53,998 bases of DNA from a virus (IMGVR_UViG_2541047728_000014), one strand, 5' to 3'. Shown: positions 8,903 through 44,663, numbered from the stretch's first letter. Translations and numbers: made by a program. The notes: generated by a model from the sequence alone, not told the origin.

Positions 8903-9093
8903 CGCATTTTCTCCTATGGTTAGAGTGAACGCGCGGGCGGGCATCCCATTAGCATTAGATAGCAGTGACTGACCGCTCAACAGATCCCGCCGTTGCGTGA
9001 TATTTGTTTTTCGCTTCGCAGCGACACCGGATTTTTAAAGAGCATAAGGTAAGTGCCTTTTTGTGCCTTCAGTTATCTTTTTCCTTGCGTCTT

Positions 9094-9177
9094 TGCAAGT
9101 ATGGCCTTACCTTGTCTGCAAGTTTACAAAATGGAATTTTAAGATCAAGGCTTAAAATACACGTTTTGTGACTTGCA
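9094..9177. promoter_or_regulatory. cI / early-operon divergent control region with ~27-bp inverted repeat and TGCAAGT repeats
   Basis: TGCAAGT at about 9094, 9117 and inverted at 9171; arms TGCAAGTTTACAAAATGGAATTTTAAG (9117-9143) and the reverse complement of 9150-9177 are near-identical; candidate leftward promoter TTGATG-16-TATTTT on the minus strand. Confidence 0.5.
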
Positions 9178-9207
9178 TCAAACTTTTTGAGGTTATAGGG
9201 TAGCGAC

Positions 9208-9855
9208 ATGAAAACAAAATGGTATGACTTAGCAAAGCAGCTCATGCGGGCGCAGGGCATGAGCCAGGATTCACTCGCGGATCGTATGGGGATAACTAAA
9301 GGCGGCCTGTCACACTGGCTGAACGGTCGCCGAGAGCCAAATCTTGAAGATATTGCGCGGATTATGCGCGAGCTTGGTCGTCGGCAGTTTACTGTTACAC
9401 ATGATGGCATGGTCATTGATGATTCTGTTTCTAATACACTTCAGGCCGTGCCGCCGCGTGATTTAGGTAGTTACCCGGTTATTGACTGGAAGGACACAGT
9501 AAACAATATGGATGACGCAAGGCGTTCAGCATTACGACACGTTACGACTAGCGTTATTTGTTCAGATGACAGTTACTGGCTGGTTGCCAAAGGTGAATCA
9601 ATGAACGCGCCGCAGGGGTTGAGCATCCCGGCGGGGACGATGATACTTGTGGACCCGCACGCGCCAGCTATTGACGGCAAACTGGTTATAGCCCAGCTTG
9701 AGGAAGGGCAGATACCGACGTTTAAACAGTTGATTATTGATGGAGGTCAAAGGCTTTTACGTTCGCTCAATCCGCTGTATCCGCCAATCCCTATGAATCC
9801 AGAATCAAAAATTATAGGCGTGGTGGTTGATGCGAAGATCGTAAACCTGCCATAA
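9208..9855 (+). CDS. cI: CI-like prophage repressor (HTH plus S24 LexA-like peptidase domain)
   Basis: 215 aa; N-terminal HTH (MSQDSLADRMGITKGGLSHWLNGRREP); C-terminal S24 domain with GESMNAP (Ser) and TFKQL (Lys) dyad. Confidence 0.9.
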   Translation: MKTKWYDLAKQLMRAQGMSQDSLADRMGITKGGLSHWLNGRREPNLEDIARIMRELGRRQFTVTHDGMVIDDSVSNTLQAVPPRDLGSYPVIDWKDTVNNMDDARRSALRHVTTSVICSDDSYWLVAKGESMNAPQGLSIPAGTMILVDPHAPAIDGKLVIAQLEEGQIPTFKQLIIDGGQRLLRSLNPLYPPIPMNPESKIIGVVVDAKIVNLP

Positions 9856-9978: not shown

Positions 9979-10007
9979 TTGACTCGATGTTTTACGGGGC
10001 GTATATT
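9979..10007 (+). promoter_or_regulatory. Candidate pL-like early promoter
   Basis: TTGACT-N17-TATATT (-35 at 9979-9984, -10 at 10002-10007), preceded by an AT-rich tract and a GTATACAAAATGG motif copy; about 350 nt upstream of the N-like gene. Confidence 0.45.
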
Positions 10008-10261
10008 GCGAGTCAAAGGAAGGGCGCAGGTAACAAAAGCAACTTCCTGGCACTTTAAAAATCAGGCTTAACACCTTGTCAACCGTGGAGTAACTCCCCG
10101 ATGGGGGACCGAAAGCGGCACTGATAACAAGGCGCATGGGGTGTTTAAAGCGTTACATCCCCCACGAAACCGCACGCAAGGCGACGAGTCAGCTTGCTTG
10201 GAGTGAGCAAGGTCACGCCGGGAACGGCGATGATTGCGGGATTAGTTGAAAGATGTTAAGC

Positions 10262-10355: not shown

Positions 10356-10646
10356 ATGAGCGTTACAATTATATATGGTAAATGTGATAGCAAAATGAAT
10401 GCCAGGGAACGCAGAAGGATAAAAAGAGAAAACGAAAGAAAATCATCACCTGCAATCAATAAAACAGACAATGTGGATAAAGCTATTCGATTTGCAAACG
10501 AGGAAAGATGCAAACCAAATAGCATTAAAGAACGTCGCAAAGGATCAGTAAAATGGTATACGGAAAATGAAAGCGGCAGCTACTACCACGCAACGCAACC
10601 ACGCCATTTAGGGGAAAAACCCCTGGATAAAGTCCGCTACCATTAA
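10356..10646 (+). CDS. N-like transcription antiterminator (arginine-rich motif protein)
   Basis: 96-aa basic protein; MNARERRRIKRENERK resembles the arginine-rich motif of lambdoid N proteins; first gene after the candidate pL and nut site. Confidence 0.55.
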   Translation: MSVTIIYGKCDSKMNARERRRIKRENERKSSPAINKTDNVDKAIRFANEERCKPNSIKERRKGSVKWYTENESGSYYHATQPRHLGEKPLDKVRYH

Positions 10647-13106: not shown

Positions 13107-13428
13107 ATTCCACAAAGCGTATGACGCTAACACAAACAAGCTATCACTATTTATCGAATTCGAACGCCGGATCGTGGTAGCGCCTTGGTCGCGGCGCTTT
13201 AATGACGCCGCCGGACGTAGACAATTCGCGGTCGATATGCTGTTACGCGGCTGCGGCCTTATGCGTCCGCTATCTGATTTAAAACGAATGATGCCGGGAT
13301 CGTTCGGTCAGATTGATGAAATAGAAATAAGCCCGGAAGAACTGAAACGTGAGCGTGATTTATTCCTTTCAAGCGAAGGAAACCCGTTTAATTCAGAAAC
13401 TGAAATGAAATGGCATCATCCACTATAA
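13096..13428 (+). CDS. Hypothetical protein (110 aa)
   Basis: ORF in operon packing. Confidence 0.5.
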   Translation: MKIKFHKAYDANTNKLSLFIEFERRIVVAPWSRRFNDAAGRRQFAVDMLLRGCGLMRPLSDLKRMMPGSFGQIDEIEISPEELKRERDLFLSSEGNPFNSETEMKWHHPL

Positions 13429-13439
13429 GGGTAAATATT

Positions 13440-14060
13440 ATGAACAATATCAAAACGGCTTATTCACTCGGCAGCGAAGGCATGTTAATTACTCGCTACA
13501 CAGAGGACGCGAGCTTTCACGAAGTGGTAACTAAGGATTATCACGAAGTTTTAAAAGATATGGAAGCAGGAGTGTATGACAGTGACTTAAATCTGGCGCT
13601 ACAGATTGTTGATATTATGATGGATGCATCAATCCGCGATTACGTGTCTTTAAGCATGGAAGAAAAAACATCGGTAGCGCGTTATGTGTTCTGCCTCACT
13701 TTCGTAAGACGCATGGAGGAGGAATTCGGACGCGCACCAGTGCCGGAAGATGTTGATCCGCTCGCGTTCGGAAGTGCTGTTATTTTCCCGTTGAACAAGG
13801 ATCTGCTTGGCAGTGTTTCACTGCATTCTATGCGCGGCCTGATGAAAAAGGTCTTTGAGGTTAAGATGTTGCAGAAATTTATTGAGGAAGGACACGAAGA
13901 AGTGAACGTTAAGGCGTTTATTCCGGTGCTTTACGGAAAATTTGTTGGCGATGATATGCGCGCTAATGAATTCGGCGTACAGGCGGCTATAGCTACGCTT
14001 AACGAAGCAATGAAAAGTGCACAGCCTATTCATGAACAGGAAAAACGTGTACTGCATTAA
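13440..14060 (+). CDS. Hypothetical protein (about 206 aa)
   Basis: ORF 13410..14060; start placed at MNNIKTAY (AAGGG RBS). Confidence 0.5.
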   Translation: MNNIKTAYSLGSEGMLITRYTEDASFHEVVTKDYHEVLKDMEAGVYDSDLNLALQIVDIMMDASIRDYVSLSMEEKTSVARYVFCLTFVRRMEEEFGRAPVPEDVDPLAFGSAVIFPLNKDLLGSVSLHSMRGLMKKVFEVKMLQKFIEEGHEEVNVKAFIPVLYGKFVGDDMRANEFGVQAAIATLNEAMKSAQPIHEQEKRVLH

Positions 14061-14064
14061 CAGC

Positions 14065-14123
14065 GTGATTGCGATCACATAAATATACATTTTGTATTGC
14101 GATCGCATATCCGTTTTGTAAAC
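14065..14123. promoter_or_regulatory. Intergenic regulatory region: CRP-like palindrome plus two TACA/TGTA motif copies
   Basis: GTGATTGCGATCACA (14065-14079); TGCGATCGCA perfect palindrome (14098-14107); TACATTTTGTAT (14086-14097) and CCGTTTTGTAAAC (14111-14123); upstream of the gene starting at 14159. Confidence 0.45.
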
Positions 14124-14158
14124 TGAAATTAAGAGGTTTACGGCACGGAGGAAACAAG

Positions 14159-14377
14159 ATGGAACGCGAATTGATGCTTTATTGCGTAGAAGGTGGCGTA
14201 GGTCACGATGCCTACGTCGCCGGGAAAGGCTACCCAGCCGATGAAGTGCTTTCTAATATGCACTTCAGAGAAAATGAAAGCCAGGTGTCTGTGTGGAAAC
14301 GGTGCATTGATGGTATTGAGGTTGTAAGTATCGAACGGTATTTAGGCACGTTCGATTACGGTGTTATTGAGGCTTAA
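14159..14377 (+). CDS. Hypothetical protein (72 aa)
   Basis: ORF 14069..14377; start placed at MERELMLY (GGAGG RBS). Confidence 0.5.
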   Translation: MERELMLYCVEGGVGHDAYVAGKGYPADEVLSNMHFRENESQVSVWKRCIDGIEVVSIERYLGTFDYGVIEA

Positions 14378-14379
14378 TT

Positions 14380-14472
14380 ATGGACGACACATTGTTTTAT
14401 ATGTGCTGTTGCTGGGGTTTTATTGCCTTATGTCTGTTTATCAGGTGGTTTATTGAATACCATATGAGGTGA
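14380..14472 (+). CDS. Candidate small hydrophobic peptide (30 aa)
   Basis: Hand-called ORF MDDTLFYMCCCWGFIALCLFIRWFIEYHMR between two annotated ORFs. Confidence 0.3.
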   Translation: MDDTLFYMCCCWGFIALCLFIRWFIEYHMR

Positions 14473-14475
14473 GGC

Positions 14476-14670
14476 ATGGAACAGAAAACTGATTATAGAA
14501 TACCTGACAACCTGAAGTTGGTTGGTATTGGTTTTGGCTGTCATTTTGTATCTGACACAAACGGTGCAATTTATTTAGTGCGCATCATTGATGGCGTTCA
14601 GCATATAAGAAGGCTAGGACTTTACATCAAAGCATTCAGAAGGGGTTATTTAAAAACTCATGAAATTTAA
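14476..14670 (+). CDS. Hypothetical protein (64 aa)
   Basis: ORF; no recognisable domain. Confidence 0.45.
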   Translation: MEQKTDYRIPDNLKLVGIGFGCHFVSDTNGAIYLVRIIDGVQHIRRLGLYIKAFRRGYLKTHEI

Positions 14671-14863
14671 ACATTACATGGAATGGAAAATTCCAGAAGC
14701 AGCAACAAAGGCAGCGCCAGGAAATTATTCTGGCGTTTATTTTTATATGGATGGCAAATGGTATTTCGGCAGCAGGCCGGATCACTATTATCAGGAAATA
14801 TGCAAGCCTCACGTATGGGATATTAAAGAGCGTGTGAAAGGCGGGGTAATTGAGGACGTTTAA
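14660..14863 (+). CDS. Hypothetical protein (67 aa)
   Basis: ORF; no recognisable domain. Confidence 0.45.
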   Translation: MKFKHYMEWKIPEAATKAAPGNYSGVYFYMDGKWYFGSRPDHYYQEICKPHVWDIKERVKGGVIEDV

Positions 14864-14864
14864 A

Positions 14865-15101
14865 ATGCTTAAGAGCTTTTTTAACTGGTTGGGGGCGTGG
14901 CTTTTGGCTACGCTTTTTGTTTTCCTGGCGGCCATGACTGTTATCGGTGTTATTATGCTGGGGGCTATTTTTATTACGTGGTCGCTTCCTGAATTTAACG
15001 ACATTGGGAATATTCTTTTTGCAGCCCGCGCTTTATTGGCTGTTAGCGCATTCATTGGTTTTTGCTGGACTGCCGCGCCGGATTGGACTGACACATGGTG
15101 A
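14865..15101 (+). CDS. Small membrane protein (two predicted TM helices)
   Basis: ORF 14850..15101; start placed at MLKSFFNWLG (GAGGA RBS); hydrophobic stretches LGAWLLATLFVFLAAMTVIGVIMLGAIFI and ALLAVSAFIGFCW. Confidence 0.5.
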   Translation: MLKSFFNWLGAWLLATLFVFLAAMTVIGVIMLGAIFITWSLPEFNDIGNILFAARALLAVSAFIGFCWTAAPDWTDTW

Positions 15102-15105
15102 TCCT

Positions 15106-15339
15106 ATGGCCTTATTCAATATGTCAGAGCCGCAATTTAACGCCGTAAAGACTGCCGCCCGCGCCGCGCTTTCGGCCTGCAAAGCGGAGGTAGAGAAGAA
15201 CGGCTACAGCGATAAAGCCACGCGGCTGATATTAGATAAGCATTATCGCAAGGTCGCCCCGCTAATCAGTATTGAGCGTTTTGTGTGGTTGGTGGGGTAT
15301 CTGAATAACCGCTGGGGAACAGATCAGGATTATTTCTAA
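15106..15339 (+). CDS. Hypothetical protein (about 77 aa)
   Basis: In-frame part of ORF 14947..15339 starting at MALFNMSEPQ after the upstream stop. Confidence 0.45.
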   Translation: MALFNMSEPQFNAVKTAARAALSACKAEVEKNGYSDKATRLILDKHYRKVAPLISIERFVWLVGYLNNRWGTDQDYF

Positions 15340-15348
15340 GGGGGCGTA

Positions 15349-15888
15349 ATGAAAAATGATTACGGCGGCAGCCATACGCCGAAAGAAATAAAAGACTTAT
15401 GGCAAACGCCAAAACCCGTTTTTAGAGGAATGGATCGGGAATTCGAGTTCGTCGCGGATGTGGCGGCAAACAAGGAAAACGCATTAATCCCGCGATATAT
15501 AACCGAAGAAATGGACACGCTCCATTATCCGTGGGGAGCGGTGGCGATGCCTGGTGAGTATGTCTGGATGAATCCGCCATATTCTAATCCGGGACCATTC
15601 GTTGATAAGGCGGCGCTTGAACATCAACGAAATCACATTGGCTGTGTAATGCTATTGCCCGCTGACATTTCTGTTAGCTGGTTTATGAACGGCGTGGAGA
15701 CGGCAAACGAATGCCGATTAATCACGCGCGGGCGGCTGGCGTTTATCAATGCTGCAACAGGGAAACCAGTAAGCGGGAACAATAAGGGGAGCTTGTTCTT
15801 GATCTGGCATCCACGATGCAGACATGAATGTATTTTCACGCAGATAACACGTAAAGAGCTATACGCGAGAGGCGCAAATAATGACTAA
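15349..15888 (+). CDS. Phage-type DNA N6-adenine methyltransferase (Dam family)
   Basis: 179 aa; WQTP motif near the N-terminus and catalytic NPPYS; size and layout typical of the small phage Dam methylases. Confidence 0.75.
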   Translation: MKNDYGGSHTPKEIKDLWQTPKPVFRGMDREFEFVADVAANKENALIPRYITEEMDTLHYPWGAVAMPGEYVWMNPPYSNPGPFVDKAALEHQRNHIGCVMLLPADISVSWFMNGVETANECRLITRGRLAFINAATGKPVSGNNKGSLFLIWHPRCRHECIFTQITRKELYARGANND

Positions 15889-16288
15889 GGCAGCAGATTT
15901 ATTAAGACTTGCAGCAGAAACCATAGAGCAAAGAGGTAAGCAAAACGGCTACGACAAAAAAGAGGAAAAATCAGCGCCAAAAATAGCCACTATTTACAAC
16001 GCTAAGAAGGGGGCAGATTTAACCACGCTTGATGTATGGGATCTGCTAATTTGTCTCAAGGAGGCGCGTTTAGAGGCTATTTTGAGCAATAACAGCGATC
16101 CGACAGACACACTAATTGATTTAATTAGCTATAACGCGCTAAAAGCTGAGCAAATATTAACGGAGCGGGAGGAAGAGCAAAAGAAAAAACAGGGCGTTTT
16201 TGATCTCCCTATCGGTGGATTGAAGAAAACTTTTGCTGACCTTGCCGGACCAGAACCATCTATTGTACCGGGGCAATCCCACCTGTGA
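15881..16288 (+). CDS. Conserved phage protein of unknown function (135 aa)
   Basis: ORF; AADLLRLAAETIEQRGKQNGYD ... LDVWDLLICLKEARL pattern looks like a recurring phage family; function unknown. Confidence 0.5.
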   Translation: MTKAADLLRLAAETIEQRGKQNGYDKKEEKSAPKIATIYNAKKGADLTTLDVWDLLICLKEARLEAILSNNSDPTDTLIDLISYNALKAEQILTEREEEQKKKQGVFDLPIGGLKKTFADLAGPEPSIVPGQSHL

Positions 16289-16372
16289 TGTTTAACGGTG
16301 GTGAGATTACTAATCGGCTTGATGTGAAGTTTGACAACGAATCGCTATTACGCGCGGCGGGGTATCATAAAA

Positions 16373-16876
16373 ATGGAAAGGGTGACAATTGACAGGTTAT
16401 TAGCCTGCGTTTATGTCGCCGTTTTTGTGATCATCAATCTTATTGTTAATCATTGCGGCCCGTGGGTAATTCCGATCACCACGGTAGCCGCCGTGTGTGT
16501 CAATATGATGATCCGTGACCTCCTGTTATATGACGGCGGCCTGAAATGGTCGGCTACAACATGCGCCGCCGCTGGCGCAATCACGGTGCTGATAAATTAC
16601 GACGCCGGAATGGTGGCGATCGCGTCATTCGTTGCGGTTGTTTCCGGTGCACTTATTTCTGGCGGCGTTTACCGGGTTTTGCCTGGTGGCTTTGATTCTA
16701 AACGTTGGCCTGCAAATATAGCGTCCGCCATTGGTGATGCGTTAATTTTTCCTACGCTATCGTTTATGGCGTTTATGCCGGAAATATCAGCTATGCAATT
16801 CATCTCAAAAATGGCAGCGGTAACGGTGATCACCATCATTATGCGCCGCTATTTCACGTTTGAGGGTAGAAAATGA
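16373..16876 (+). CDS. Polytopic membrane protein, possibly YhhQ/DUF165-like queuosine-precursor transporter
   Basis: ORF 16331..16876; start placed at MERVTIDR; several hydrophobic helices; weak resemblance to YhhQ motifs (MIRDLLLYDGG, IGDALIFPTLSFMAF); family assignment unverified. Confidence 0.35.
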   Translation: MERVTIDRLLACVYVAVFVIINLIVNHCGPWVIPITTVAAVCVNMMIRDLLLYDGGLKWSATTCAAAGAITVLINYDAGMVAIASFVAVVSGALISGGVYRVLPGGFDSKRWPANIASAIGDALIFPTLSFMAFMPEISAMQFISKMAAVTVITIIMRRYFTFEGRK

Positions 16877-17631
16877 GCAGGGCTAAACATTGGTTAAATA
16901 ATTGGCTTAGAAGTTGGGTGGTGTGGTCGCTGTACGACGGCAGCGGGTACGCCGTTAAAGATTGGGCGGAAGCTGGATATAAGTGCTATTGCTTCAACTA
17001 TGACGGCGCAAATCACGGAGATTATGAAGGCGTTAAAATCATTCATCCAAATATTGAATACGTTAACGTCTGGATTGATAGCCATTTCCTGGTAATGTTC
17101 TCCCCTGAATTGTCTGTTTATCCAGAGCCTGACATTATCCTGGGCTTTCCTCCATGCGACGATCTCGCTGTGTCAGGCGCTCGCTGGTTCGTTGATAAAT
17201 ACAGGAAAGATCCTTGTTTTCAGAATAGGGCGGCAAGAAACGCAATGTTGGTTGAATCTCTGGCTAACATGTATAACGTGCCGTGGATGGTGGAGAATCC
17301 TGTTGGTGTGCTGTCAACGCTATGGCGTAAACCGGATTTTATCTTCAATCCTTGCGCTTACGGTGGCTACCTGCCGGAAGATGACAAGCATCCTGCTTTC
17401 CCTGATGTTTACCCACCGCGCGACGCGTACACGAAGAAAACTTGCATATGGTGCGGCAACGGATTCAGGCAGCCGCTTTTTAGACCTGTAGATCTTAACT
17501 CTGGTGATAACCCTGGGTGGGCGAAAACCGGAGGCAGGACGAAACGAACAAAGATGATCCGCTCACTAACACCGCGTGGCTTTGCCCGTGCTGTATTCCT
17601 GGCTAACCATGACCGCGTTTTATCGGACTGA
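16873..17631 (+). CDS. Truncated C5-cytosine-methyltransferase-like protein (PCD instead of PCQ, no obvious target-recognition domain)
   Basis: 252 aa; motif I-like LYDGSGY, motif IV-like ILGFPPCDDLAVSGARWF, motif VI-like MVENPVG with canonical spacing; CIWCGNG Cys pair near the C-terminus; too short for a canonical C5 MTase. Confidence 0.5.
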   Translation: MSRAKHWLNNWLRSWVVWSLYDGSGYAVKDWAEAGYKCYCFNYDGANHGDYEGVKIIHPNIEYVNVWIDSHFLVMFSPELSVYPEPDIILGFPPCDDLAVSGARWFVDKYRKDPCFQNRAARNAMLVESLANMYNVPWMVENPVGVLSTLWRKPDFIFNPCAYGGYLPEDDKHPAFPDVYPPRDAYTKKTCIWCGNGFRQPLFRPVDLNSGDNPGWAKTGGRTKRTKMIRSLTPRGFARAVFLANHDRVLSD

Positions 17632-17633
17632 AG

Positions 17634-17713
17634 TTTACAAAATGGCGTCATTGCGTGATATGGATCACATAATGGCGCTTTTCGCCTTGTTCTGGTGTAT
17701 CCATTTTGTATAC
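17634..17713. promoter_or_regulatory. Intergenic regulatory region: inverted pair of TTTACAAAATGG motifs flanking a CRP-like palindrome
   Basis: TTTACAAAATGG (17634-17645), GTGATATGGATCACA (17655-17669), CCATTTTGTATAC (17701-17713); between the MTase-like gene and the ninF-like gene. Confidence 0.45.
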
Positions 17714-17790
17714 TTCAAGCAAACAAAATGCTCTTTAAAAATCCGGCAGCGCTGAAATGCGTAGAAATCACCTGAAAAGGAGAGAGCATT

Positions 17791-17967
17791 ATGTCTTTTG
17801 ATGATTACCAATGGCATGACGACTATGAACGAGAAAGCGTTATGCGTGCAATGTGCAATGTATGCAGCACGAAGAAAGGAGGCTGTAACGAGTGCAACGA
17901 ATGCTTAGAACATTGGCTAAGGGCCGGACACGCCGAAAGGCTGAACGAAACAGAGAATCAAAAATAA
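17791..17967 (+). CDS. NinF-like small zinc-finger protein (58 aa)
   Basis: Hand-called ORF MSFDDYQWHDDYERESVMRAMCNVCSTKKGGCNECNECLEHWLRAGHAERLNETENQK; strong AGGAGA RBS; ESV.RA..C..C pattern and length resemble lambda NinF; directly upstream of ninG. Confidence 0.5.
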   Translation: MSFDDYQWHDDYERESVMRAMCNVCSTKKGGCNECNECLEHWLRAGHAERLNETENQK

Positions 17968-17981
17968 TCGGGGTGGTTTTT

Positions 17982-18587
17982 ATGCAAAACCCTAAAAAAC
18001 CCATAAGACGCCGTTGCAAATGCTGCGGCGTTTTTTTTGAGCCTAAATATCACAATCAAACGTGGTGCAGCGATGAATGTCTGGAAGAACTGAAGTTTGA
18101 CCAGCTATGCCGCGACCGTGAGAAGGCTATGAAGGCTATGGAGCGGAAGAAACGCCGTGATAGCCAGAGGGAAGAACGCAACCGGAAGCGTAAACAGTTA
18201 AATCCGCGTAGTTATTGGATCAAACAAGTTCAAAATGTATTTAACGCCTATATTCGCGAACGTGACGCGCGCTTGCCGTGTATATCTTGCGGGACTTACT
18301 ACGGTGAGCAATGCGGGTGGGATGCAGGTCATTACAGGACGGTAGCCGCCGCCGGACACCTTCGCTTCAACGAGGATAATTGCCATAAGCAATGTAGGCA
18401 CTGCAACCAGACACTAGACGGCAACATCGGAGGGTATCGCCCGGCGCTGATTCGAAAAATTGGCCTCGCCAGGGTGGTAGCTCTGGAGAACAACAACGAT
18501 ACGCATAAATGGACGATTGCAGAATGTAAGGAGCTAATAAACATCTATCAGGCGAAATTGGACGCCTTAAGGAGAAAGGCAGCATGA
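17982..18587 (+). CDS. ninG: NinG/Rap-like recombination protein
   Basis: ORF 17892..18587; start placed at MQNPKKPIRRRCKCCG; PRSYWIKQVQNVFNAYIRERDARLPCISCGT...WDAGHYRT.AAAGHLRFNE.N.HKQC..CNQ closely resembles lambda NinG as recalled. Confidence 0.8.
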   Translation: MQNPKKPIRRRCKCCGVFFEPKYHNQTWCSDECLEELKFDQLCRDREKAMKAMERKKRRDSQREERNRKRKQLNPRSYWIKQVQNVFNAYIRERDARLPCISCGTYYGEQCGWDAGHYRTVAAAGHLRFNEDNCHKQCRHCNQTLDGNIGGYRPALIRKIGLARVVALENNNDTHKWTIAECKELINIYQAKLDALRRKAA

Positions 18588-18991
18588 ATGAATATTCTTT
18601 TAGCCTGCCTTACCCGCCATCGAATAATCGCTATTACCGACATTCGCGCGGTTTTCACTATATCAGCAAAGTGGGGAAGGAATACAGGGAACAAGTAAGA
18701 GACATCATCGAGCTATTAAATTTAAATATTAACCTACCTTGCCGACTGGCAATTGCCATTTACGCCGCGCCGCCGGATAACCGGATCAGAGATCTGGATA
18801 ATATCCCTAAATGCCTTTTTGACAGCCTTACTTATGCCGGATTCTGGAGGGATGACGGGCAAATTGACTCAATAAAAATTGTCCGCTGCCGGAAGGTAAA
18901 AGGCGGACGCTTGTTTATTAAGATCCGCGAACGCGGCGACCTACTACCGGATATTGACGAATACGCGACTAATATGTGGGGTGAGCAATGA
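18584..18991 (+). CDS. rusA: RusA-family Holliday junction resolvase
   Basis: 135 aa; SFSLPYPPSNNRYYRH ... RDLDNIPKCLFDSLTYAGFWRDDGQI matches the RusA signature. Confidence 0.8.
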   Translation: MNEYSFSLPYPPSNNRYYRHSRGFHYISKVGKEYREQVRDIIELLNLNINLPCRLAIAIYAAPPDNRIRDLDNIPKCLFDSLTYAGFWRDDGQIDSIKIVRCRKVKGGRLFIKIRERGDLLPDIDEYATNMWGEQ

Positions 18992-19170
18992 AAAACGAAG
19001 TTAAAGATCTGCAAATAGATATTCAGCGCGACGAGCGTGATTTAGAGACGGTCCGACAAATCCAGGCTTTCCACATGCGCGAATTACTTGCGCTGAAAGA
19101 GTTCGAAAGAAAGCTGGTGCAATCCATTTCTGATCGTAAACGGCTGGCGGCGCGTTATGAGGGCAAATAA
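18988..19170 (+). CDS. Hypothetical small protein (60 aa)
   Basis: ORF overlapping the rusA stop and the Q start. Confidence 0.45.
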   Translation: MKNEVKDLQIDIQRDERDLETVRQIQAFHMRELLALKEFERKLVQSISDRKRLAARYEGK

Positions 19171-19898
19171 TGAATTTAGAATCCATTCTAAAATTCCACT
19201 TTCCTAAATCACCGCGATTATCTGACGAAAGCCGGGGCACGTCCCCGGACGCTCTTAATACGACGGATGCGCTAACCGCTGCGGGTATGGCGCAATCGCG
19301 CGTAGAGCTTGGATATGGCGCTTTTTTAGGGAAGATGGAACTATCACAAGCCGAAAAACATAGGGCCGTAGTTTTGCTTACAGAGCGTTTAAGGGCTATG
19401 GCGAAAGATTACGAATACGTGATGGAGTTAAACGAGGATCAGCGCAATGGACTTATTATTCTTGTTGCCGTTTTCGCGTTTCGGGATTATTGCCAGAGTG
19501 CGGCGACCGAAAAAGTTTGCCCTAAGTGCGGCGGCCACGGGCATTTACCAAATCCATATTGCAAATACACATCGACAATTTGTTCGCGGTGCAACGGCAA
19601 AGGCTACGTTAAAAACCATTGCCAACGTTGCAAGGGGCGCGGAGAAGTACCGGATAAAGCAGCCAGTGAAGCGGCGGAAATGCCAGTATTCAAAACGTGC
19701 CAGCATTGCGGCGGGCGCGGGTACTCGCGTTTCCCGGTAGATCTCGTCCGGCAGGCCGTTAACCAGCTTGTTTTCCCGGTAAGCAGATCAACATGGTGGA
19801 AGAAATACCGGGTTTTCTATGAAGACGCCATAGCGGAGCTATTCAAAGAAGAGGCCCGCGCGGAAAGCGAAATTAAACGAGTGACACGGGGTGAATAA
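19170..19898 (+). CDS. Q: Late-gene antiterminator Q (lambda Q family)
   Basis: 242 aa; N-terminus MNLESILKFHFPKSPRLSDESRGTSPDALNTTDALTAAGMAQS...FLGKMELSQAEK parallels lambda Q (MRLESVAKFHSPKSPMMSD...) as recalled; Cys-rich zinc-binding region with four CxxCxGxG units. Confidence 0.82.
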   Translation: MNLESILKFHFPKSPRLSDESRGTSPDALNTTDALTAAGMAQSRVELGYGAFLGKMELSQAEKHRAVVLLTERLRAMAKDYEYVMELNEDQRNGLIILVAVFAFRDYCQSAATEKVCPKCGGHGHLPNPYCKYTSTICSRCNGKGYVKNHCQRCKGRGEVPDKAASEAAEMPVFKTCQHCGGRGYSRFPVDLVRQAVNQLVFPVSRSTWWKKYRVFYEDAIAELFKEEARAESEIKRVTRGE

Positions 19899-20101
19899 TG
19901 GACAAGTTAGAAATAAACGATCAGTTTGCCGTTATCTTGTTCGAAGATAAAACGGGCGGCGCGTGGTGTAAGAAAGTAACTGGTGCAGAAGCGCGATTGA
20001 TATTGGGTATGGCAAGCGCATTAAACGAAGGCGAATTGCCAGCCGTACCTATTGAGCCTGTTCACATTTACGGGAGGAATAGAGAAGATGAAAATAATTA
20101 A
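19898..20101 (+). CDS. Hypothetical small protein (67 aa)
   Basis: ORF; ATG overlaps the Q stop (TAATG). Confidence 0.45.
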   Translation: MDKLEINDQFAVILFEDKTGGAWCKKVTGAEARLILGMASALNEGELPAVPIEPVHIYGRNREDENN

Positions 20102-20435
20102 TATCGGGTGGTTATATTGCGAAAACTGCGACGACGACGGCATGGTTGTTAAGACTGAAAAAGGTTGCGGCTTCTTTTTGTATCAAGGCGATAAGTTTGT
20201 TTGTCCGCGATGCGGTGGTCATGGTGAGATAGAAATTATTGAAGATAGTGCTACAGCACCAGAGCCGGAGCGCATTGTTCTTGACGAAAAAATAAAAATT
20301 CATCCTGATTTATTGCAGCAAATTATCGATCACATATCGGCAGCAGCAATCTATGCAGATAATAATTATCATCGTAAAATGAACGTAAAACGTGTTCTTG
20401 AGCAGTATTTCGAGGGTGGTGATAATGAAGCCTAA
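20088..20435 (+). CDS. Hypothetical Cys4 zinc-ribbon protein (115 aa)
   Basis: ORF 20052..20435; start placed at MKIINIGW (GGGAGG RBS); CENC...CPRCGGHG. Confidence 0.45.
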   Translation: MKIINIGWLYCENCDDDGMVVKTEKGCGFFLYQGDKFVCPRCGGHGEIEIIEDSATAPEPERIVLDEKIKIHPDLLQQIIDHISAAAIYADNNYHRKMNVKRVLEQYFEGGDNEA

Positions 20436-20694
20436 ATTAAAAGAACATGAATTCAGGGATCTTGTAAACGGAATAACTGATAAGTCCAGGACTTATTCAA
20501 ATACACAACAATTAAGGGCTGTGATAGTTACTGAATTAAGGAAATATATAGACCTAAGAGATCCGGTCGATGTTATGACGATGGACGAGGCCATCAAGCG
20601 CCGTTCGGCTGAATGGTCAGTGAGTAATACCGGATTAACCGGATATATTGAAGGCTATAACGACTGTTTACAGGATCATAGCGATGGCAAGTAA
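20425..20694 (+). CDS. Hypothetical protein (89 aa)
   Basis: ORF 20392..20694; start placed at MKPKLKEHE. Confidence 0.45.
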   Translation: MKPKLKEHEFRDLVNGITDKSRTYSNTQQLRAVIVTELRKYIDLRDPVDVMTMDEAIKRRSAEWSVSNTGLTGYIEGYNDCLQDHSDGK

Positions 20695-20992
20695 AGACCT
20701 GCATTTGAATCTGAAAGGGGAATACTTCCACGCCATCCGGGCGGGAAAGAAGGTGGAAGAATACAGGCTTTACAATGACTATTGGCGTAAACGCCTGGAG
20801 GGGCGGGAATATGAACGCCTGATCATTAAGCTGGGGTATCCAGCCAGCCACGAAGCGCACCGGATCATAAACCTGCCTTATTTCGGGTACGAAGTAAAAA
20901 CTATCACGCATCCATTATTCGGCCCTGATCCTGTTAAGGTATTCGCAATTAAATGTGATGTGAATTGGATGTTAAGGTGGGGTGAGCAATGA
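20684..20992 (+). CDS. Hypothetical protein (102 aa), possibly ASCH/PUA-like
   Basis: ORF 20648..20992; start placed at MASKDLHL; EYFHAIRAGKKVEEYR pattern is weakly reminiscent of ASCH-like folds; unverified. Confidence 0.4.
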   Translation: MASKDLHLNLKGEYFHAIRAGKKVEEYRLYNDYWRKRLEGREYERLIIKLGYPASHEAHRIINLPYFGYEVKTITHPLFGPDPVKVFAIKCDVNWMLRWGEQ

Positions 20993-21204
20993 AAAAAGCT
21001 GGCCTGTCAATCAGTCGTGTGTTGTGCGGCGACGAAAGCGAGATCCGCATAGAAATTAAATTTAGCACGGGTAAAGAGATAATTCTCTATACGACACCTG
21101 AAAACCTGACGCTGGCGCTTACTGGTAAATCTGAAACGCCGTGCGACGTCCGGTTGCGCAATATTGAGATTAAGGAAATAGGAAGGGTGAGAAATGAAAA
21201 GTAA
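20989..21204 (+). CDS. Hypothetical small protein (71 aa)
   Basis: ORF in operon packing. Confidence 0.45.
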   Translation: MKKAGLSISRVLCGDESEIRIEIKFSTGKEIILYTTPENLTLALTGKSETPCDVRLRNIEIKEIGRVRNEK

Positions 21205-21406
21205 CCGTAAACGCCTGGTAAGGTCATATGACAAAGCGTTAAAGGTTTTTGATGATCTGCGACACAATAAACGCCAGCGCCGCAAATGGGCGCGAATGCT
21301 TGTTGGTGAATGGCATAACGAAGATTTCTTTCTGGAAGCGCGGCACATGACGCAAGAAGACGCGGACCAATTAGCTTACGATAACGTTTATTATATGATG
21401 TGGTGA
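21194..21406 (+). CDS. Hypothetical small basic protein (70 aa)
   Basis: ORF in operon packing. Confidence 0.45.
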   Translation: MKSNRKRLVRSYDKALKVFDDLRHNKRQRRKWARMLVGEWHNEDFFLEARHMTQEDADQLAYDNVYYMMW

Positions 21407-21410
21407 CAAT

Positions 21411-21776
21411 ATGCAAATAATCCTTGATTACCTTTGCCACGCTGCAAATACAATTTTTGGCATGTATCAGCAACAATTCCTCAAAGAATGGGACGACATG
21501 CTGAATGATATCCTCGATAAAGGATTAATAATGGAGGTTGACGAGCTTACAATCAAATTTAATTATGAGGGTGAAATTTATCTAATTTGGGTCGGGAATA
21601 GATGGTATTCATACGGTCATATTTATTCAATTGGCGATAAATACATTAAACGAAGCCAGGAATTCAGACCGCGCTTCCGAACAATGCGCCGCCTGCATGA
21701 TCTGCATATGAAGTTATTCGAAGATCAGGAAGCACGGGAATTATTCAAAATTTACGGGGATAAATCATGGAGCTAA
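21411..21776 (+). CDS. Hypothetical protein (121 aa)
   Basis: ORF in operon packing. Confidence 0.45.
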   Translation: MQIILDYLCHAANTIFGMYQQQFLKEWDDMLNDILDKGLIMEVDELTIKFNYEGEIYLIWVGNRWYSYGHIYSIGDKYIKRSQEFRPRFRTMRRLHDLHMKLFEDQEARELFKIYGDKSWS

Positions 21777-21997
21777 AAATCTGGCAGGCTATCGACGTGG
21801 TTGATAACGAATTATCTATGTTTGCCACTGACGGAAAGCGCGTGGTGATCGCCACATGGACGCGCAACCATGATGATATTACTTTTCGTCGCAAGGCTGC
21901 GGAGTGGCTTTTCTCTGATGAAGGCTACACGATGAATATCTCCCAGCTTGCCAGAATGAAGGATGAAAAGCTGGTAGATAGTTACACGACTGCATAG
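21767..21997 (+). CDS. Hypothetical small protein (76 aa)
   Basis: ORF in operon packing. Confidence 0.45.
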   Translation: MELKIWQAIDVVDNELSMFATDGKRVVIATWTRNHDDITFRRKAAEWLFSDEGYTMNISQLARMKDEKLVDSYTTA

Positions 21998-22007
21998 TGG
22001 GGCAAAT

Positions 22008-22241
22008 ATGCGTATCTATGAACACAAGCGGGATAAAACCCGCTTTTTTGTTCGTGCTGGCGTGGCGTACCAGTATCACGAATGTGGATATATTGAGGTG
22101 CTTGCTTACAACCTGGATTTCGAACAAGAAAAAGAATGGTTTGACTTTAAGATTTACCGGAAGCGTAAACCGACGCGCGACGAGCGACACGCTATCCGGG
22201 ACTTTTTAATCAGCATAGACCGCTGGGAGACAGAGGAATGA
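22008..22241 (+). CDS. Hypothetical small protein (77 aa)
   Basis: ORF in operon packing. Confidence 0.45.
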   Translation: MRIYEHKRDKTRFFVRAGVAYQYHECGYIEVLAYNLDFEQEKEWFDFKIYRKRKPTRDERHAIRDFLISIDRWETEE

Positions 22242-22525
22242 GAGCGAAGAAAACAGCAGATCAGAAAGCGTTAGTTATCACTACAACTGATGTGTCGTTA
22301 TTCACGAAGGGTGAAGAAATAGATCTTAAATTACTTTTCGGCATGTTTGAGCCACACGAAAAGCCGTGGTTCGTGCATGAAGACAAACAGGGAAATATGC
22401 GCGTAGTAGTGCCGGACAAAAACAGCGACATATTTTTTGCTATTCCAGACCCGTTACATGACGGTGAATTGCTGGCGGTATTGTTGATCGCTGATGCTGT
22501 TACTTATAAAGGGAAAGAAATATGA
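22238..22525 (+). CDS. Hypothetical protein (95 aa)
   Basis: ORF in operon packing. Confidence 0.45.
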   Translation: MRAKKTADQKALVITTTDVSLFTKGEEIDLKLLFGMFEPHEKPWFVHEDKQGNMRVVVPDKNSDIFFAIPDPLHDGELLAVLLIADAVTYKGKEI

Positions 22526-22749
22526 AAGTTAAATTCTTGCACGATCACGGCTACCCATCATTAAAACGCGTGGTAGGGGAAACGGTAGACGTTGTTCATT
22601 CTGATGATGTGACCTGCGTCATTTTGGGTAAAGACCTTATCGCTCACGGTGCTGATGATTACTACATTAACCCGGCGTGGTCATATACGTTTAGCCTGGG
22701 CGACTTCGTAGGCGATAAGGGGCGCGGCTTGCAAGTAGTCGAGGGTTAA
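22522..22749 (+). CDS. Hypothetical small protein (75 aa)
   Basis: ORF in operon packing. Confidence 0.45.
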   Translation: MKVKFLHDHGYPSLKRVVGETVDVVHSDDVTCVILGKDLIAHGADDYYINPAWSYTFSLGDFVGDKGRGLQVVEG

Positions 22750-22753
22750 TATC

Positions 22754-22969
22754 ATGGACGTTTACGAAGATTTATACCTTCAAACAAATACCAGCACTTT
22801 TTATTTTTTGAAAAACGGCGTCGTATATCGCAGCGATGACGGGGTAATAATGAAAGAGTGGCTATTTAAACGCAAAGACCTACTTGATGACCTGGTTTTT
22901 GCCGGGATATTCCGTAAACGTCCGGCTAACCTGGAAGAAGAAATGCTGATCGACGAGGTATTAAAATGA
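22754..22969 (+). CDS. Hypothetical small protein (71 aa)
   Basis: ORF in operon packing. Confidence 0.45.
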   Translation: MDVYEDLYLQTNTSTFYFLKNGVVYRSDDGVIMKEWLFKRKDLLDDLVFAGIFRKRPANLEEEMLIDEVLK

Positions 22970-23211
22970 AAGTGAATTATTTCAGGGCAAAAGACAAGGC
23001 AACAGGAAAGCGGGTGGCTATCTTGGTTAATGAAGCAAATTATATGTTTGTTCTCCAGCCGTGGTGCATAGCTGACTATAACGATGATTATCGCCGTCAC
23101 GCTGCGCGGCGGGCGGTCGGGATGAAAGGCTGGCAGCCTCGCGACATGCTTAATTACTGCGACTGGAATCTGATAGCAAAATACACGGTCGATTATAAAG
23201 GGGTTTTCTGA
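22966..23211 (+). CDS. Hypothetical small protein (81 aa)
   Basis: ORF in operon packing. Confidence 0.45.
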   Translation: MKVNYFRAKDKATGKRVAILVNEANYMFVLQPWCIADYNDDYRRHAARRAVGMKGWQPRDMLNYCDWNLIAKYTVDYKGVF

Positions 23212-23423
23212 TGCAAGTTAAATGCTCATACTCAAGCAATGACAGTGTTTTCACGATTGGGAGTATTTATGACGTTCACATCGTTTATGGCAATGAAGCA
23301 CACACAATGAGTAATTGCCTTGCCTTGATTGATAATCATGACGAAATATGGGTATTCAGGCCGAGCTATGAAGGCGGTGAAATATCCGGTGTAGGTTTTG
23401 CTGCCAGCTTTGAACGTTATTAA
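23211..23423 (+). CDS. Hypothetical small protein, member 1 of a four-gene tandem paralogue family
   Basis: 70 aa; shares G.IY.V ... I(T/D)(D/N)HD(E/Q)(L/I)W.F pattern with the next three ORFs. Confidence 0.45.
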   Translation: MQVKCSYSSNDSVFTIGSIYDVHIVYGNEAHTMSNCLALIDNHDEIWVFRPSYEGGEISGVGFAASFERY

Positions 23424-23433
23424 AGGGGCAACA

Positions 23434-23691
23434 ATGAAACATTTATATTTTGAGGTATTGCAGACGCGCGACCGCAATATTTTTGAAGAAGGGAAGATCT
23501 ATTGCGGCGTTCAACTCCACGGCGCACCGGGCGGTGATGGTGCAATGGCGATAACTGGCGATGATGATAAAGTTTATTTCGCTTATGTTAGCCATATCAA
23601 TAACGCCGCTGGTTTGTATATTTATCGCATAGTGCATGATTTCCGTGAGATCGCGGAGTTTTGCGCCCGCGAAGGCAGTAAACCGGAATAA
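23434..23691 (+). CDS. Hypothetical small protein, paralogue family member 2
   Basis: ORF 23398..23691; start placed at MKHLYFEV; EGKIYCGV ... ITGDDDKVYFAY. Confidence 0.45.
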   Translation: MKHLYFEVLQTRDRNIFEEGKIYCGVQLHGAPGGDGAMAITGDDDKVYFAYVSHINNAAGLYIYRIVHDFREIAEFCAREGSKPE

Positions 23692-23701
23692 GTGAGGTGC
23701 T

Positions 23702-23938
23702 ATGAATCGGAAACATAGATACCAGTGCACATACTCACGATGCAGCGCGTTTTTTAAGAATGGCAAGATCTACGAGGTTGACGCGGCATTGGTTGACGCA
23801 AAGGATCAGGAATATATTCATGCCATTACTGACGACCATGGTCAGTTATGGCGATTTTATAAGATGGGGTATGGCACGGCACTTGTTTATGCGCGTGCTG
23901 GTGGTGCTTTTGCTGCGTTTTCGTATGTAGGGGTATGA
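23702..23938 (+). CDS. Hypothetical small protein, paralogue family member 3
   Basis: 78 aa; NGKIYEVDAALVDAKDQEYIHAITDDHGQLWRFYK. Confidence 0.45.
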   Translation: MNRKHRYQCTYSRCSAFFKNGKIYEVDAALVDAKDQEYIHAITDDHGQLWRFYKMGYGTALVYARAGGAFAAFSYVGV

Positions 23939-24159
23939 AAATGATTTTAACGTGTAACGAATCGAAATTAGGCTGTTTTGAAGAAGGCGCACAGTATACG
24001 GCTGAAAAACCGATGGGATTGTCTCCTAAATTGCCGTTTATCGTCGTTACTGACACTTACGGTCACTTATGGTATGCAGAGCCGCGCCGGGGAGCTGGTC
24101 GCTATGTTGTCCGTAGTTCGGATGGGGCGATGAAGGTTACTTTTACTGAAGAAACGTAA
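23935..24159 (+). CDS. Hypothetical small protein, paralogue family member 4
   Basis: 74 aa; EGAQYTAEKPMGLSPKLPFIVVTDTYGHLWYAEPR. Confidence 0.45.
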   Translation: MKMILTCNESKLGCFEEGAQYTAEKPMGLSPKLPFIVVTDTYGHLWYAEPRRGAGRYVVRSSDGAMKVTFTEET

Positions 24160-24160
24160 A

Positions 24161-24220
24161 TGTGATCTGTATCACAATGTTTACGAAATGGCATTGTTTC
24201 GGCAGTGCCATTTTGTTATA
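24161..24220. promoter_or_regulatory. Intergenic regulatory region: near-consensus CRP-like palindrome followed by an inverted motif pair
   Basis: AAATGTGATCTGTATCACAAT (palindrome 24161-24176) close to CRP consensus TGTGA-N6-TCACA; then GTTTACGAAATGGCA and TGCCATTTTGTTATATA (8-bp inverted repeat AAATGGCA/TGCCATTT); upstream of the gene starting at 24252. Confidence 0.5.
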
Positions 24221-24251
24221 TATAAGCCACTGAAAGACGGATGGCAAAATC

Positions 24252-24898: not shown

Positions 24899-25133
24899 AC
24901 CTTACAAAATCCGGTGTAAGGGAGAGTATCCGGGATTTACGATTGGGTGTGAATACCTGGGCTGTATGGGGTATGGCCCTTTTGGTGAATTAGGGATGAA
25001 TACGATTGACGACGACAGCGACAACAGGACGCTTGATCTTGATTCTGATGATTTCGAATACATCCCGCCAGTAACTTACCGCGTAGTTGATTATTTCCTA
25101 GCTGAACAAGAAGGCGAGGGCGATGATGATTGA
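24882..25133 (+). CDS. Hypothetical acidic protein (83 aa; start uncertain)
   Basis: ORF opens with TTG; Asp/Glu-rich C-terminus (EQEGEGDDD). Confidence 0.35.
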   Translation: MSASNKPYKIRCKGEYPGFTIGCEYLGCMGYGPFGELGMNTIDDDSDNRTLDLDSDDFEYIPPVTYRVVDYFLAEQEGEGDDD

Positions 25134-39102: not shown

Positions 39103-39124
39103 ATCCGGGCGTTTGTCTTATTTG
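39088..39124. terminator. Bidirectional terminator between the convergent chaperone and secreted-protein genes
   Basis: Hairpin GCCCGG-TAGAT-CCGGGC flanked by AAAAA upstream and GTTTGTCTTATTT downstream. Confidence 0.6.
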
Positions 39125-43755: not shown

Positions 43756-43765
43756 GATTTTACTC

Positions 43766-44534: not shown

Positions 44535-44663
44535 AACGCACCTCCGCGCCATTTTGTTAACTTCCCCTTCGTTTGAGTAAAATATACATATTGTAAAAAC
44601 CATGATCAATCCATTTTGGTGTGATTTAGCGTGACGCATATCACAAAATGACAAGGTGAGAAA

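Follow-up and report, generated by a model that had tools for sequence, protein, structure and literature searches.

Three copies of a short palindrome, GTGAT-N4-ATCAC, lie within the long rightward operon of a viral genome (IMGVR_UViG_2541047728_000014), and they raise the question of whether the host regulator cAMP-CRP controls promoters inside this operon, as an earlier note on the same DNA had suggested. The window that we analysed is the whole stretch of 53,998 nucleotides, and the virus is a temperate E. coli phage of the mEp021 group (mEpimmI). The palindromes were found exactly where the earlier note had placed them, at 14065-14079 (GTGATTGCGATCACA), 17655-17669 (GTGATATGGATCACA) and 24161-24176 (TGTGATCTGTATCACA), and each is indeed located in a non-coding gap, of 98 nt (14061-14158), 159 nt (17632-17790) and 92 nt (24160-24251), respectively. 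Within its gap, each site begins 1-23 nt past the stop codon of the preceding gene. Copies of the TACA/TGTA motif (CATTTTGTA) adjoin the sites, as had also been pointed out, at positions 14088, 14112, 17636 (minus strand), 17702, 24182 (minus strand) and 24209.

The three palindromes are real, non-random matches to the CRP binding site. The window contains exactly three instances of GTGAT-N4-ATCAC against 0.07 expected, and none of 100 shuffles reached this number, while TGTGA-N6-TCACA with at most one mismatch was found five times against 1.29 expected, with all five instances in non-coding DNA. The fit to the latter consensus had been claimed for all three sites; it holds in full for site 3 (core 10/10), whereas sites 1 and 2 start with CGTGA and match at 9 of the 10 positions. 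Over the full 22-bp CRP consensus, flanks included, site 3 is identical at 18 of 22 positions. We also scored the sites with a position weight matrix (PWM) for CRP, a check that the earlier note had proposed. This matrix, an approximate one derived from classic literature sites, gives those sites themselves scores from 3.4 to 17.6; with it, sites 1, 2 and 3 scored 13.6, 17.2 and 19.3, compared with 15.7 for the lac site. The null maxima (n = 300) had a mean of 13.5 and a highest value of 18.5, such that site 3 exceeded every training site and 300 of 300 null maxima, while site 1 was only at the level of a null maximum. Four sites in the window scored at least 14, against 0.4 expected.

Each palindrome is followed by a candidate promoter on the plus strand, and the three modules are all built as [CRP site]-17 nt-[weak -35 TTGnnn]-11 nt-[TTTTG + TA(A/T)A(C/T)T]. 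In module 1, site 1 (CGTGATTGCGATCACA, 14064-14079, centre 14071.5) precedes a promoter candidate at 14097-14124 with -35 TTGCGA (14097-14102), a 16-nt spacer ending in TTTTG and -10 TAAACT (14119-14124). In module 2, site 2 (CGTGATATGGATCACA, 17654-17669, centre 17661.5) precedes a candidate at 17687-17714 with -35 TTGTTC (17687-17692), a 16-nt spacer and -10 TATACT (17709-17714). In module 3, the perfect core of site 3 has an AAA left flank (centre 24168.5), and the candidate at 24194-24222 consists of -35 TTGTTT (24194-24199), a 17-nt spacer and a TGn-extended -10 (TGTTATATA, with the -10 at 24217-24222). From the site centre to the start of the -35 box, all three modules measure 25.5 bp, identical to lac P1 (NC_000913.3), and the distance to the predicted -10 box is 47.5-48.5 bp, versus 49.5 bp in lac P1. 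With spacers of 16-17 bp, not 18 bp, between the -35 and -10 boxes, the site centres come to lie about 59.5 to 60.5 bp upstream of the predicted starts, 1-2 bp closer to them than the position -61.5. Weak -35 boxes such as these are typical of activator-dependent promoters.

The module 1 candidate has the top plus-strand sigma70 score in its gap and ranks 64th among some 540,000 candidates of the window, and the module 2 candidate is the top one in its gap and ranks 63rd; both are within the top 0.02% of sigma70 scores, among which the obvious early promoter ranked first. The module 3 candidate is also the top plus-strand candidate in its gap but weak (rank 1774), and it overlaps a strong terminator-like hairpin (TACGAAATGGCA...TGCCATTTTGT, 24183-24216, plus strand) that follows site 3 and holds the -35 candidate in its loop. 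ARNold predicted terminators at the equivalent place in mEp554 (T10), mEp010 (T8) and mEp044 (T7). A simple consensus promoter scan did not call any of the module 1-3 candidates. Their reading as core promoters gains support from the paralogy to the early promoter and, in module 2, from the conserved CTTGTT and -10 region, both described below.

A fourth CRP-like site (TGTGACTTGCATCAAA, 9167-9182, centre 9174.5, PWM score 16.9) is located between cI and the leftward early promoter. Its centre lies 26.5 bp upstream of the -35 box of a PL-like candidate (TTGATC-16-TAAACT, 9121-9148, minus strand), the best candidate in the cI-nutL interval and the 25th in the window, and in 21 distinct relatives its TGTGA and TCAAA halves are invariant while the middle is variable. 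Alignment of the modules with this region revealed a common GCCTTG[A/T]TCT...TCCATTTTGTA[A/T]ACTT and an identical boxA. Judged by sequence, all three modules are paralogous to the region of the leftward early promoter. The sequence between the elements has diverged beyond recognition, with the palindrome arms, TTG, TTTTGT and the exact spacing kept in all three modules. No independent fourth family with the module architecture was found among 80 loci; given this and the paralogy, the geometry may be partly inherited, not selected three times.

Conservation among relatives differed between the modules. The GTGA and TCACA arms of site 2 are invariant in 66 loci (36 distinct sequences), which together display 16 spacer variants and PWM scores of 16.3-19.8. 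CTTGTT and GTATCCATTTTGTATACTT are likewise invariant in module 2, and the linker and the spacer differ in sequence at a fixed length. In the 36 distinct sequences, only 3 of the 31 variable columns fall within the 22 columns contacted in the model (P = 0.006), and these three are the least specified CRP positions. Site 2, alone of the three, thus appears clearly to be under selection. The PWM scores of site 1, on the other hand, vary from -0.9 to 16.1 in 30 distinct relatives, with the arm changes GTAAT, ATTACA and ATCATA, and about half of the related genomes carry a degraded form of the site. The -10 box of module 1 has decayed to TAAGCC in a clade with a broken palindrome; where the -10 box was intact, the palindrome core was broken in 1 of 16 sequences, versus 8 of 14 where the box was degraded (Fisher P = 0.004, largely due to one clade), which implies that the two were once constrained together. 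At site 3, 21 distinct relatives retain the left half (TGTGATCT), and the spacing of the module is invariant in 21 relatives as well; on the right, one of two versions is present, ATCACA or CC[T/C/A]CGCA. The genes flanking the module vary from relative to relative. Variation did not significantly avoid the contact columns in module 1 (P = 0.63) or in module 3 (P = 0.84).

The small-ORF accessory genes that had been described downstream of the sites are present after modules 1 and 3 but not after module 2, which precedes nutR2-ninF-ninG-rusA-Q, with Q the late regulator. The nutR2 element (17729-17770, plus strand), composed of boxA (TGCTCTTTAAAAATCCGG, 17729-17746) and a boxB region after it, has been published as located downstream of the cytosine methyltransferase gene (PMC11893012); that paper mentions neither CRP input nor a promoter in the interval from the methyltransferase gene to nutR2. 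Further copies of the boxA 17-mer, which spans 17730-17746 at nutR2, are found at 9027-9043 (minus strand) and 10050-10066 (plus strand), and no change in the nutR2 boxA was seen among relatives. Only module 2 contains a boxA; modules 1 and 3 are without it. We rejected the possibility that the palindromes are themselves nut elements: their loops vary freely (16 variants at site 2), boxA is restricted to the three places just named, and nutR2 lies apart from site 2, as an element of its own 60 nt further downstream.

Could the palindromes work as hairpins, formed by the rightward RNA or by single-stranded DNA, with an incidental likeness to CRP sites? Site 2 would then be the core of an intrinsic terminator, t4, placed where the methyltransferase gene ends, and sites 1 and 3 small 3'-end or stabilising hairpins. 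Site 2 is indeed surrounded by an extended 15-bp imperfect hairpin (17644-17679, plus strand) at the place of TERM_4 in mEp021; the same stem is annotated as TERM_4 (score 79) in the mEp021 record MH706966, and t4 is listed as a predicted terminator (PMC11893012). The RNA from 17632 to 17700 (69 nt) folds with -23.2 kcal/mol (z = -3.7), with an A/U-rich stem. The hairpin is conserved over 36 bp; its loop is the variable part, and its flanks, which the CRP model leaves unexplained, are nearly invariant. Four one-sided changes (10 sequences) preserve the pairing; against these, four variants break pairs and double compensatory changes are absent. The T-tract after site 2 is variable (3-6 T in 8, with TATT or CATT in some relatives and TATTCACC in mEp021 itself), and ARNold predicted no terminator at this place in five other mEp genomes. 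All three sites directly follow stop codons and a strong terminator-like hairpin comes after site 3, yet sites 1 and 3 alone fold no better than shuffled sequences (-3.9 and -4.6 kcal/mol; z = -0.9 and -2.1), and neither is followed by a T-tract. Substitutions in the arms across modules were G-U-compatible transitions in 6 versus 2 cases, but this asymmetry is not significant (P = 0.14), and the hairpin is disrupted both by GTAAT at site 1 and by the CC[T/C/A]CGCA arms at site 3, with the left half-site remaining fixed. Moreover, all three palindromes share GUGAU/AUCAC, and generic hairpins need no common stem sequence. None of the three was listed in a terminator scan of the window, and an Rfam search gave no match. 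Hairpins of this kind are, in our view, an unlikely explanation for the set of three.

The paralogy opens another explanation, namely that the sites are functionless or nearly so, were inherited through duplication of the leftward early promoter region with its TGTGA...TCAAA element, and persist by descent and recombination between modules; CRP may then bind with no regulatory effect. Consistent with this, every instance falls into one of three paralogous families, a hybrid of modules 1 and 2 is found in one relative (L053), the contact columns of modules 1 and 3 bear no footprint of selection, many lineages have site 1 in a state of decay, and module 2 is so conserved throughout that its invariant arms are not significant by themselves. 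We nevertheless regard neutral inheritance as rather unlikely, given the retention of arms, TTG, TTTTGT and exact spacing in modules that have otherwise diverged, the avoidance of contact columns by the variation in module 2, the joint decay of palindrome and -10 box in module 1, and the closer match of sites 2 and 3 to the CRP consensus than of the putative parent site at 9167-9182. A phage DNA-binding protein, which the earlier note had allowed for, might also read TGTGA(T)-N4-(A)TCACA and coordinate the internal promoters, with the CRP likeness due to mimicry or coincidence; a Cro-like helix-turn-helix protein (8651-8980, minus strand) or an uncharacterised small protein would be examples, and such a factor would use the site beside cI too. 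That site lies upstream of PL and overlaps the -35 box of a candidate leaderless cI promoter, where a Cro-type operator would typically be located, and many of the phage ORFs lack a recognisable domain. In favour of host CRP, no Crp/FNR-like domain was found among the 30 phage ORFs scanned. We consider a phage factor quite improbable, since no candidate protein was identified, site 3 matches the CRP consensus at 18 of 22 positions, and the host contains abundant CRP, which would bind at such sites regardless. An operator for the immunity repressor or Cro was rejected as well: the related element occurs at PL/cI only, and the PR1 region contains no such site (best PWM score 4.8, at least 4 mismatches to GTGAT-N4-ATCAC), and the palindromes are therefore not a shared immunity operator.

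The best reading, which we would call plausible rather than probable, is class-I-type activation of internal promoters by cAMP-CRP through the three predicted sites. CRP, as we infer, would bind at high cAMP levels about 61 bp upstream of the starts and recruit the C-terminal domain of the RNA polymerase alpha subunit, and the CRP-boosted initiation at the internal promoters would add to what the early promoter supplies by read-through. Module 1 would drive a short moron-like unit, with a 72-aa ORF at 14159 and its neighbours, that ends at two terminator-like hairpins (14713-14737 and 14891-14917, plus strand; TERM_3, T5 in relatives), and module 3 would drive ORFs of 99 and 107 aa, with a possible transcript end at a terminator-like hairpin at 24959-24979 (plus strand). 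Transcripts from module 2 would begin about 9 nt before nutR2. In the absence of the N-like protein Gp17, they would end at a terminator-like hairpin with a T8 run in the 5' part of ninG (18012-18030, plus strand), which is located about 310 nt past the module 2 promoter and was predicted by ARNold in five relatives; with Gp17, they would continue into ninG, rusA and the late regulator Q. If the CRP reading is true, a sugar-sensing regulator of the host would act on internal promoters of the phage.

The modules resemble lac P1 and other class I CRP promoters in having the site 25.5 bp upstream of the -35 box of a weak core promoter. They differ from lac P1 in the spacer between the -35 and -10 boxes (16-17 versus 18 bp), in the phage-specific TTTTG before the -10 box and in their location inside an operon, directly after stop codons. 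Direct regulation of phage promoters by cAMP-CRP has been described for pir, dam and recE of phage T1 (Laganenka et al. 2019, PMC6737242), and the likeness is that host CRP acts on coliphage promoters and ties the phage programme to sugar uptake (PMC6737242). CRP represses in T1, however, whereas activation is predicted here because the sites are upstream of the -35 boxes; T1 also belongs to another phage family. Like morons, modules 1 and 3 precede groups of short ORFs with terminator-like hairpins 600-800 nt downstream, but these cassettes have the same orientation as the antiterminated operon in which they reside, and their expression from the prophage is putative. Module 2, finally, recalls the lambda-type N units and the nutL, nutR1 and nutR2 elements of mEp021 in that it is located immediately upstream of nutR2, and its promoter-like part together with boxA is paralogous to the PL-nutL unit.

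Three CRP-type palindromes, here called sites 1, 2 and 3, are located at 14064-14079, 17654-17669 and 24161-24176 in non-coding gaps of 98, 159 and 92 nt in the rightward operon, and the coordinates given for these sequences in the earlier note were exact. The genes immediately upstream are a 216-aa ORF (13410-14060), a cytosine methyltransferase (16873-17631) and a 74-aa ORF (23935-24159), respectively. The window contains 3 copies of GTGAT-N4-ATCAC against 0.07 expected, a number reached by no shuffle, and 5 matches to the CRP core TGTGA-N6-TCACA with at most 1 mismatch against 1.29 expected (9167, 14064, 17654, 24161 and 44630), all 5 of them non-coding. For the weight-matrix scoring that the earlier note had called for, we used a symmetrised matrix of 19 classic footprinted sites, with the lac site checked against NC_000913.3; the matrix, with its training sites drawn from the literature, is approximate. 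On this approximate scale, site 3 scored 19.3, site 2 17.2 and site 1 13.6, compared with 15.7 for lac, while 300 Markov-simulated windows gave a mean maximum of 13.5 and a top value of 18.5. Four sites scored at least 14 on the same approximate matrix, where 0.4 were expected. Site 3 is identical to the 22-bp CRP ideal at 18 positions, every core position among them. Judging from this closeness to the consensus, we think that CRP probably binds sites 2 and 3. A special role of GATC in the sites was considered and dropped, the genome not being depleted in GATC (259 versus 207 expected) and several natural site variants lacking it.

Each site is followed in the same gap by a candidate promoter, and we refer to these combinations as modules 1, 2 and 3. 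Aligned on the palindromes, the modules share the layout core, 17 nt, TTGnnn, 11 nt and TTTTG, followed by TAAACT, TATACT or (T)TATATA. In every module the -35 begins 25.5 bp from the centre of the palindrome, and the distance measured in lac P1, with CRP at -61.5, is also 25.5 bp; the class I CRP promoter architecture is textbook knowledge. We ranked about 540,000 candidate promoters in the window with a frequency-weighted sigma70 score. The rightward early promoter PR1 (TTGACT-17-TATATT at 9979) ranked first, the leftward early promoter candidate PL (9121-9148, minus strand) 25, and modules 2, 1 and 3 ranked 63, 64 and 1774, the candidate promoter of module 3 having a TGn extended -10. When the plus strand was ranked gap by gap, the module promoter came out on top in all three gaps. 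A simple consensus promoter scan called no module promoter, which fits activator dependence, yet is no evidence for it. Sigma32, sigma54 and sigmaE readings of the modules, compared by eye only, were rejected, with spacings that did not fit or a likeness in one module alone. Separately, an 8-bp inverted repeat, TTGACTCG...CGAGTCAA (9979-9986 and 10009-10016), brackets the strongest sigma70 promoter of the window (9979-10016) and is possibly the operator pair of the rightward early promoter.

Module 2 and the leftward early promoter region are paralogous: GCCTTGTTCT...TCCATTTTGTATACTT corresponds to GCCTTGATCT...TCCATTTTGTAAACTT, and an identical boxA, TGCTCTTTAAAAATCCGG, then follows in both. 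The boxA/boxB downstream of the methyltransferase gene is nutR2, the third nut site of the system of Gp17, an N-like antitermination protein (PMC11893012), and the predicted start of module 2 lies about 9 nt upstream of it. A terminator-like hairpin with a T8 run is located in ninG, 310 nt downstream of module 2, and a terminator was predicted there in 5 relatives. The boxA-like 17-mer GC[T/A]CTTTAAAAATC[C/A]GG occurs in three copies, at 9027-9043 (minus strand), 10050-10066 and 17730-17746 (both plus strand), which correspond to the published nutL, nutR1 and nutR2, the nutL copy being identical to that of nutR2. The ninF 5' leader including nutR2 (17719-17790) was nearly invariant in 36 distinct relatives and exceeded the adjoining coding sequence in conservation.

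The leftward early promoter has a CRP-like element of its own, TGTGACTTGCATCAAA, with a score of 16.9, located 26.5 bp upstream of its -35; in 21 distinct relatives the half-sites were invariant and the middle varied. This element (in the region 9167-9208) shares bases with the -35 of a candidate cI promoter of the leaderless type (TTGCAT at 9173, 17 nt, TAGGGT), which would start at about the cI ATG at 9208. CRP at TGTGACTTGCATCAAA could favour PL over cI transcription.

To follow the modules across relatives, we assembled 80 loci from phages in GenBank and from IMG/VR with anchors that excluded the palindromes. The region has 87-90% identity to MagusPhagus, mEp554, mEp010, mEp515, mEp021, mEp013 and mEp044, which form the mEp021 group (mEpimmI) of temperate, Nus-dependent, non-lambdoid coliphages. 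In human faecal samples, phages of this group have been reported to equal lambdoid phages in frequency (PMC11893012). Gene calls were transferred from the relatives' annotation and supplemented with Pfam, yielding cI at 9208-9855, the N-like gene gp17 at 10356-10646 and a Q-type antiterminator (PF03589) at 19170-19898. More distant relatives, sought in a species-level genome collection via the 216-aa protein, were not found.

The GTGA and TCACA of site 2 were invariant in 66 loci (36 distinct sequences), and the spacer came in 16 variants with scores of 16.3-19.8 throughout on the approximate matrix. CTTGTT and GTATCCATTTTGTATACTT of module 2 were likewise invariant, and the linker and the -35/-10 spacer varied in sequence with a constant length, bar one 1-bp deletion. 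Under a CRP-plus-sigma70 model, only 3 of the 31 variable columns fell among the 22 contacted columns (P=0.006), and those 3 are the least specified. The left half of site 3, TGTGATCT, was kept in each of 21 distinct relatives, with ATCACA as the right half in about half of the sequences and CC[T/C/A]CGCA in the remainder. Site 1 scored anywhere between -0.9 and 16.1, and both of its arms carried changes that break the core. Broken cores were found in 8 of 14 sequences in a clade where the -10 TAAACT is degraded to TAAGCC, versus 1 of 16 sequences with an intact -10 (Fisher P=0.004), so that palindrome and -10 appear to decay together. No independent further instance of the architecture was found in the 80 loci outside the three paralogous families. 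A related locus (L053, IMGVR_UViG_3300045988_076772; minus strand near 3072) joins a module 1 palindrome to a -35/spacer of the module 2 kind, TTGTCCtgctgtatccg, a sign that paralogous modules have undergone recombination or gene conversion with each other. Both mEp021 and mEp515 lack module 3 (window 24160-24251 versus 14983-15054 in related loci L003 and L005) and the genes on both sides of it vary among relatives; it thus behaves like a mobile boundary between gene cassettes.

The fifth match to the CRP core, CGTGACGCATATCACA (44630-44645, matrix score 15.8), precedes the gene for tail protein L (44664, PF05100) by 18 nt and adjoins a minus-strand moron block; its distance to the -35 of the best leftward promoter is 28.5 bp, unlike class I. 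The tail gene cluster is broken by minus-strand moron-like genes (39118-39537, 42264-42518, 43507-43821, 44015-44467 and 51491-51793), among whose products are one protein with a ParE-like toxin domain and another with a KilAC antirepressor domain. The phages mEp021, mEp515 and mEp013 carry an intact GTGA-N6-TCAC palindrome, GGTGATTCCTATCACT, within a membrane-protein gene (10391 in L003, 10391 in L005 and 10456 in L006), and the window has a counterpart with one mismatch, GTAATTCCGATCAC (16466-16479); the palindrome probably reflects coding constraint or chance.

The 9-mer CATTTTGTA flanks all three sites, in agreement with the TACA/TGTA motif described beside them in the earlier note. Its 15 exact copies are at 6291, 14088, 14542, 17702, 39785, 42372 and 42763, and on the minus strand at 2195, 5151, 9125, 9968, 10647, 17636, 42833 and 51885; with at most 1 mismatch there were 40 against 22 expected, and [T/G]CCATTTTGTA[A/T]ACTT is a frequent extended form. 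Every divergent intergenic region contains one copy per strand followed by a TA.A.T hexamer, suggesting a phage-typical -10-proximal promoter element. Since TACAAAATGGA is the sole word of at least 9 nt common to both early control regions, the motif could also be a repressor or Cro operator, in the manner of the scattered operators of P1 C1. Some copies inside the rightward operon point backwards.

The strongest rival explanation is that the palindromes act as RNA hairpins. An imperfect 15-bp stem (z -3.7) is centred on site 2 and corresponds to TERM_4 in the mEp021 record and to 'predicted t4' of PMC11893012; the stem flanks are conserved and pairing is kept by four one-sided changes. However, four singletons break the pairing, a compensatory double change is absent, and the T-tract after site 2 is short and variable. 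Sites 1 and 3 alone do not form stable hairpins and lack a T-tract, and many natural variants lose pairing yet keep the left half-site. Only in module 3 could TTTTGT be read as the U-tract of a terminator. The strand asymmetry of arm substitutions, suggestive with 8 genomes, was discarded as hairpin evidence with 80 loci, where the G-U-compatible transition bias was not significant (6 versus 2, P=0.14). At site 2, a CRP site in the DNA and a hairpin in the RNA could coexist. Sites 1 and 3 may instead be neutrally inherited from the duplicated early promoter region; avoidance of contact columns across the whole family was not significant for modules 1 and 3 (P=0.63 and 0.84).

The absence of any such site from the PR1 control region ruled out an immunity operator, and boxB-like nut hairpins were rejected on account of the varying loops and the lack of boxA in modules 1 and 3. 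No domain evidence supported a CRP/FNR homologue encoded by the phage, whether the 216-aa ORF, which is of CRP size, or another; no Crp, cNMP-binding or related HTH domain was found among 30 phage ORFs. No known RNA family was found in the whole window with Rfam.

Of the single explanations, we tentatively rank functional class I activation of internal promoters first. The palindromes and positions of the earlier note stand, and its view that CRP controls internal promoters is supported in part only. Under class I activation, module 2 would be a cAMP-CRP-activated internal promoter carrying its own nut site, nutR2. Without Gp17, its transcripts would halt in ninG, so that expression of the late regulator Q would need a starvation signal from the host as well as the early programme of the phage. 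With TGTGACTTGCATCAAA over the candidate cI promoter and upstream of PL, carbon status would be wired into the lysis-lysogeny switch and late gene timing. That module 2 is CRP-activated with its own nut site and ties both Q and this switch to host carbon status strikes us as rather unlikely. If CRP does drive the promoters, gut sugar supply would tune prophage cargo gene expression and would also adjust, via nutR2 and Q, when lytic growth occurs or how much it yields; the phage group's third nut site, an unusual feature, would gain a functional reason, which a CRP-dependent promoter may provide. If the CRP reading is wrong, the sites still mark conserved module junctions and a 'terminator t4' that is mis-annotated or has a dual use.

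For this phage group, the searchable literature contains no mention of CRP, these palindromes or a promoter before nutR2. Phage T1 offers a precedent for CRP acting directly on the promoters of a coliphage; there it represses pir, dam and recE (PMC6737242). Such control and the class I architecture are thus already known, and a CRP-dependent promoter that explains the third nut site may be the testable addition.
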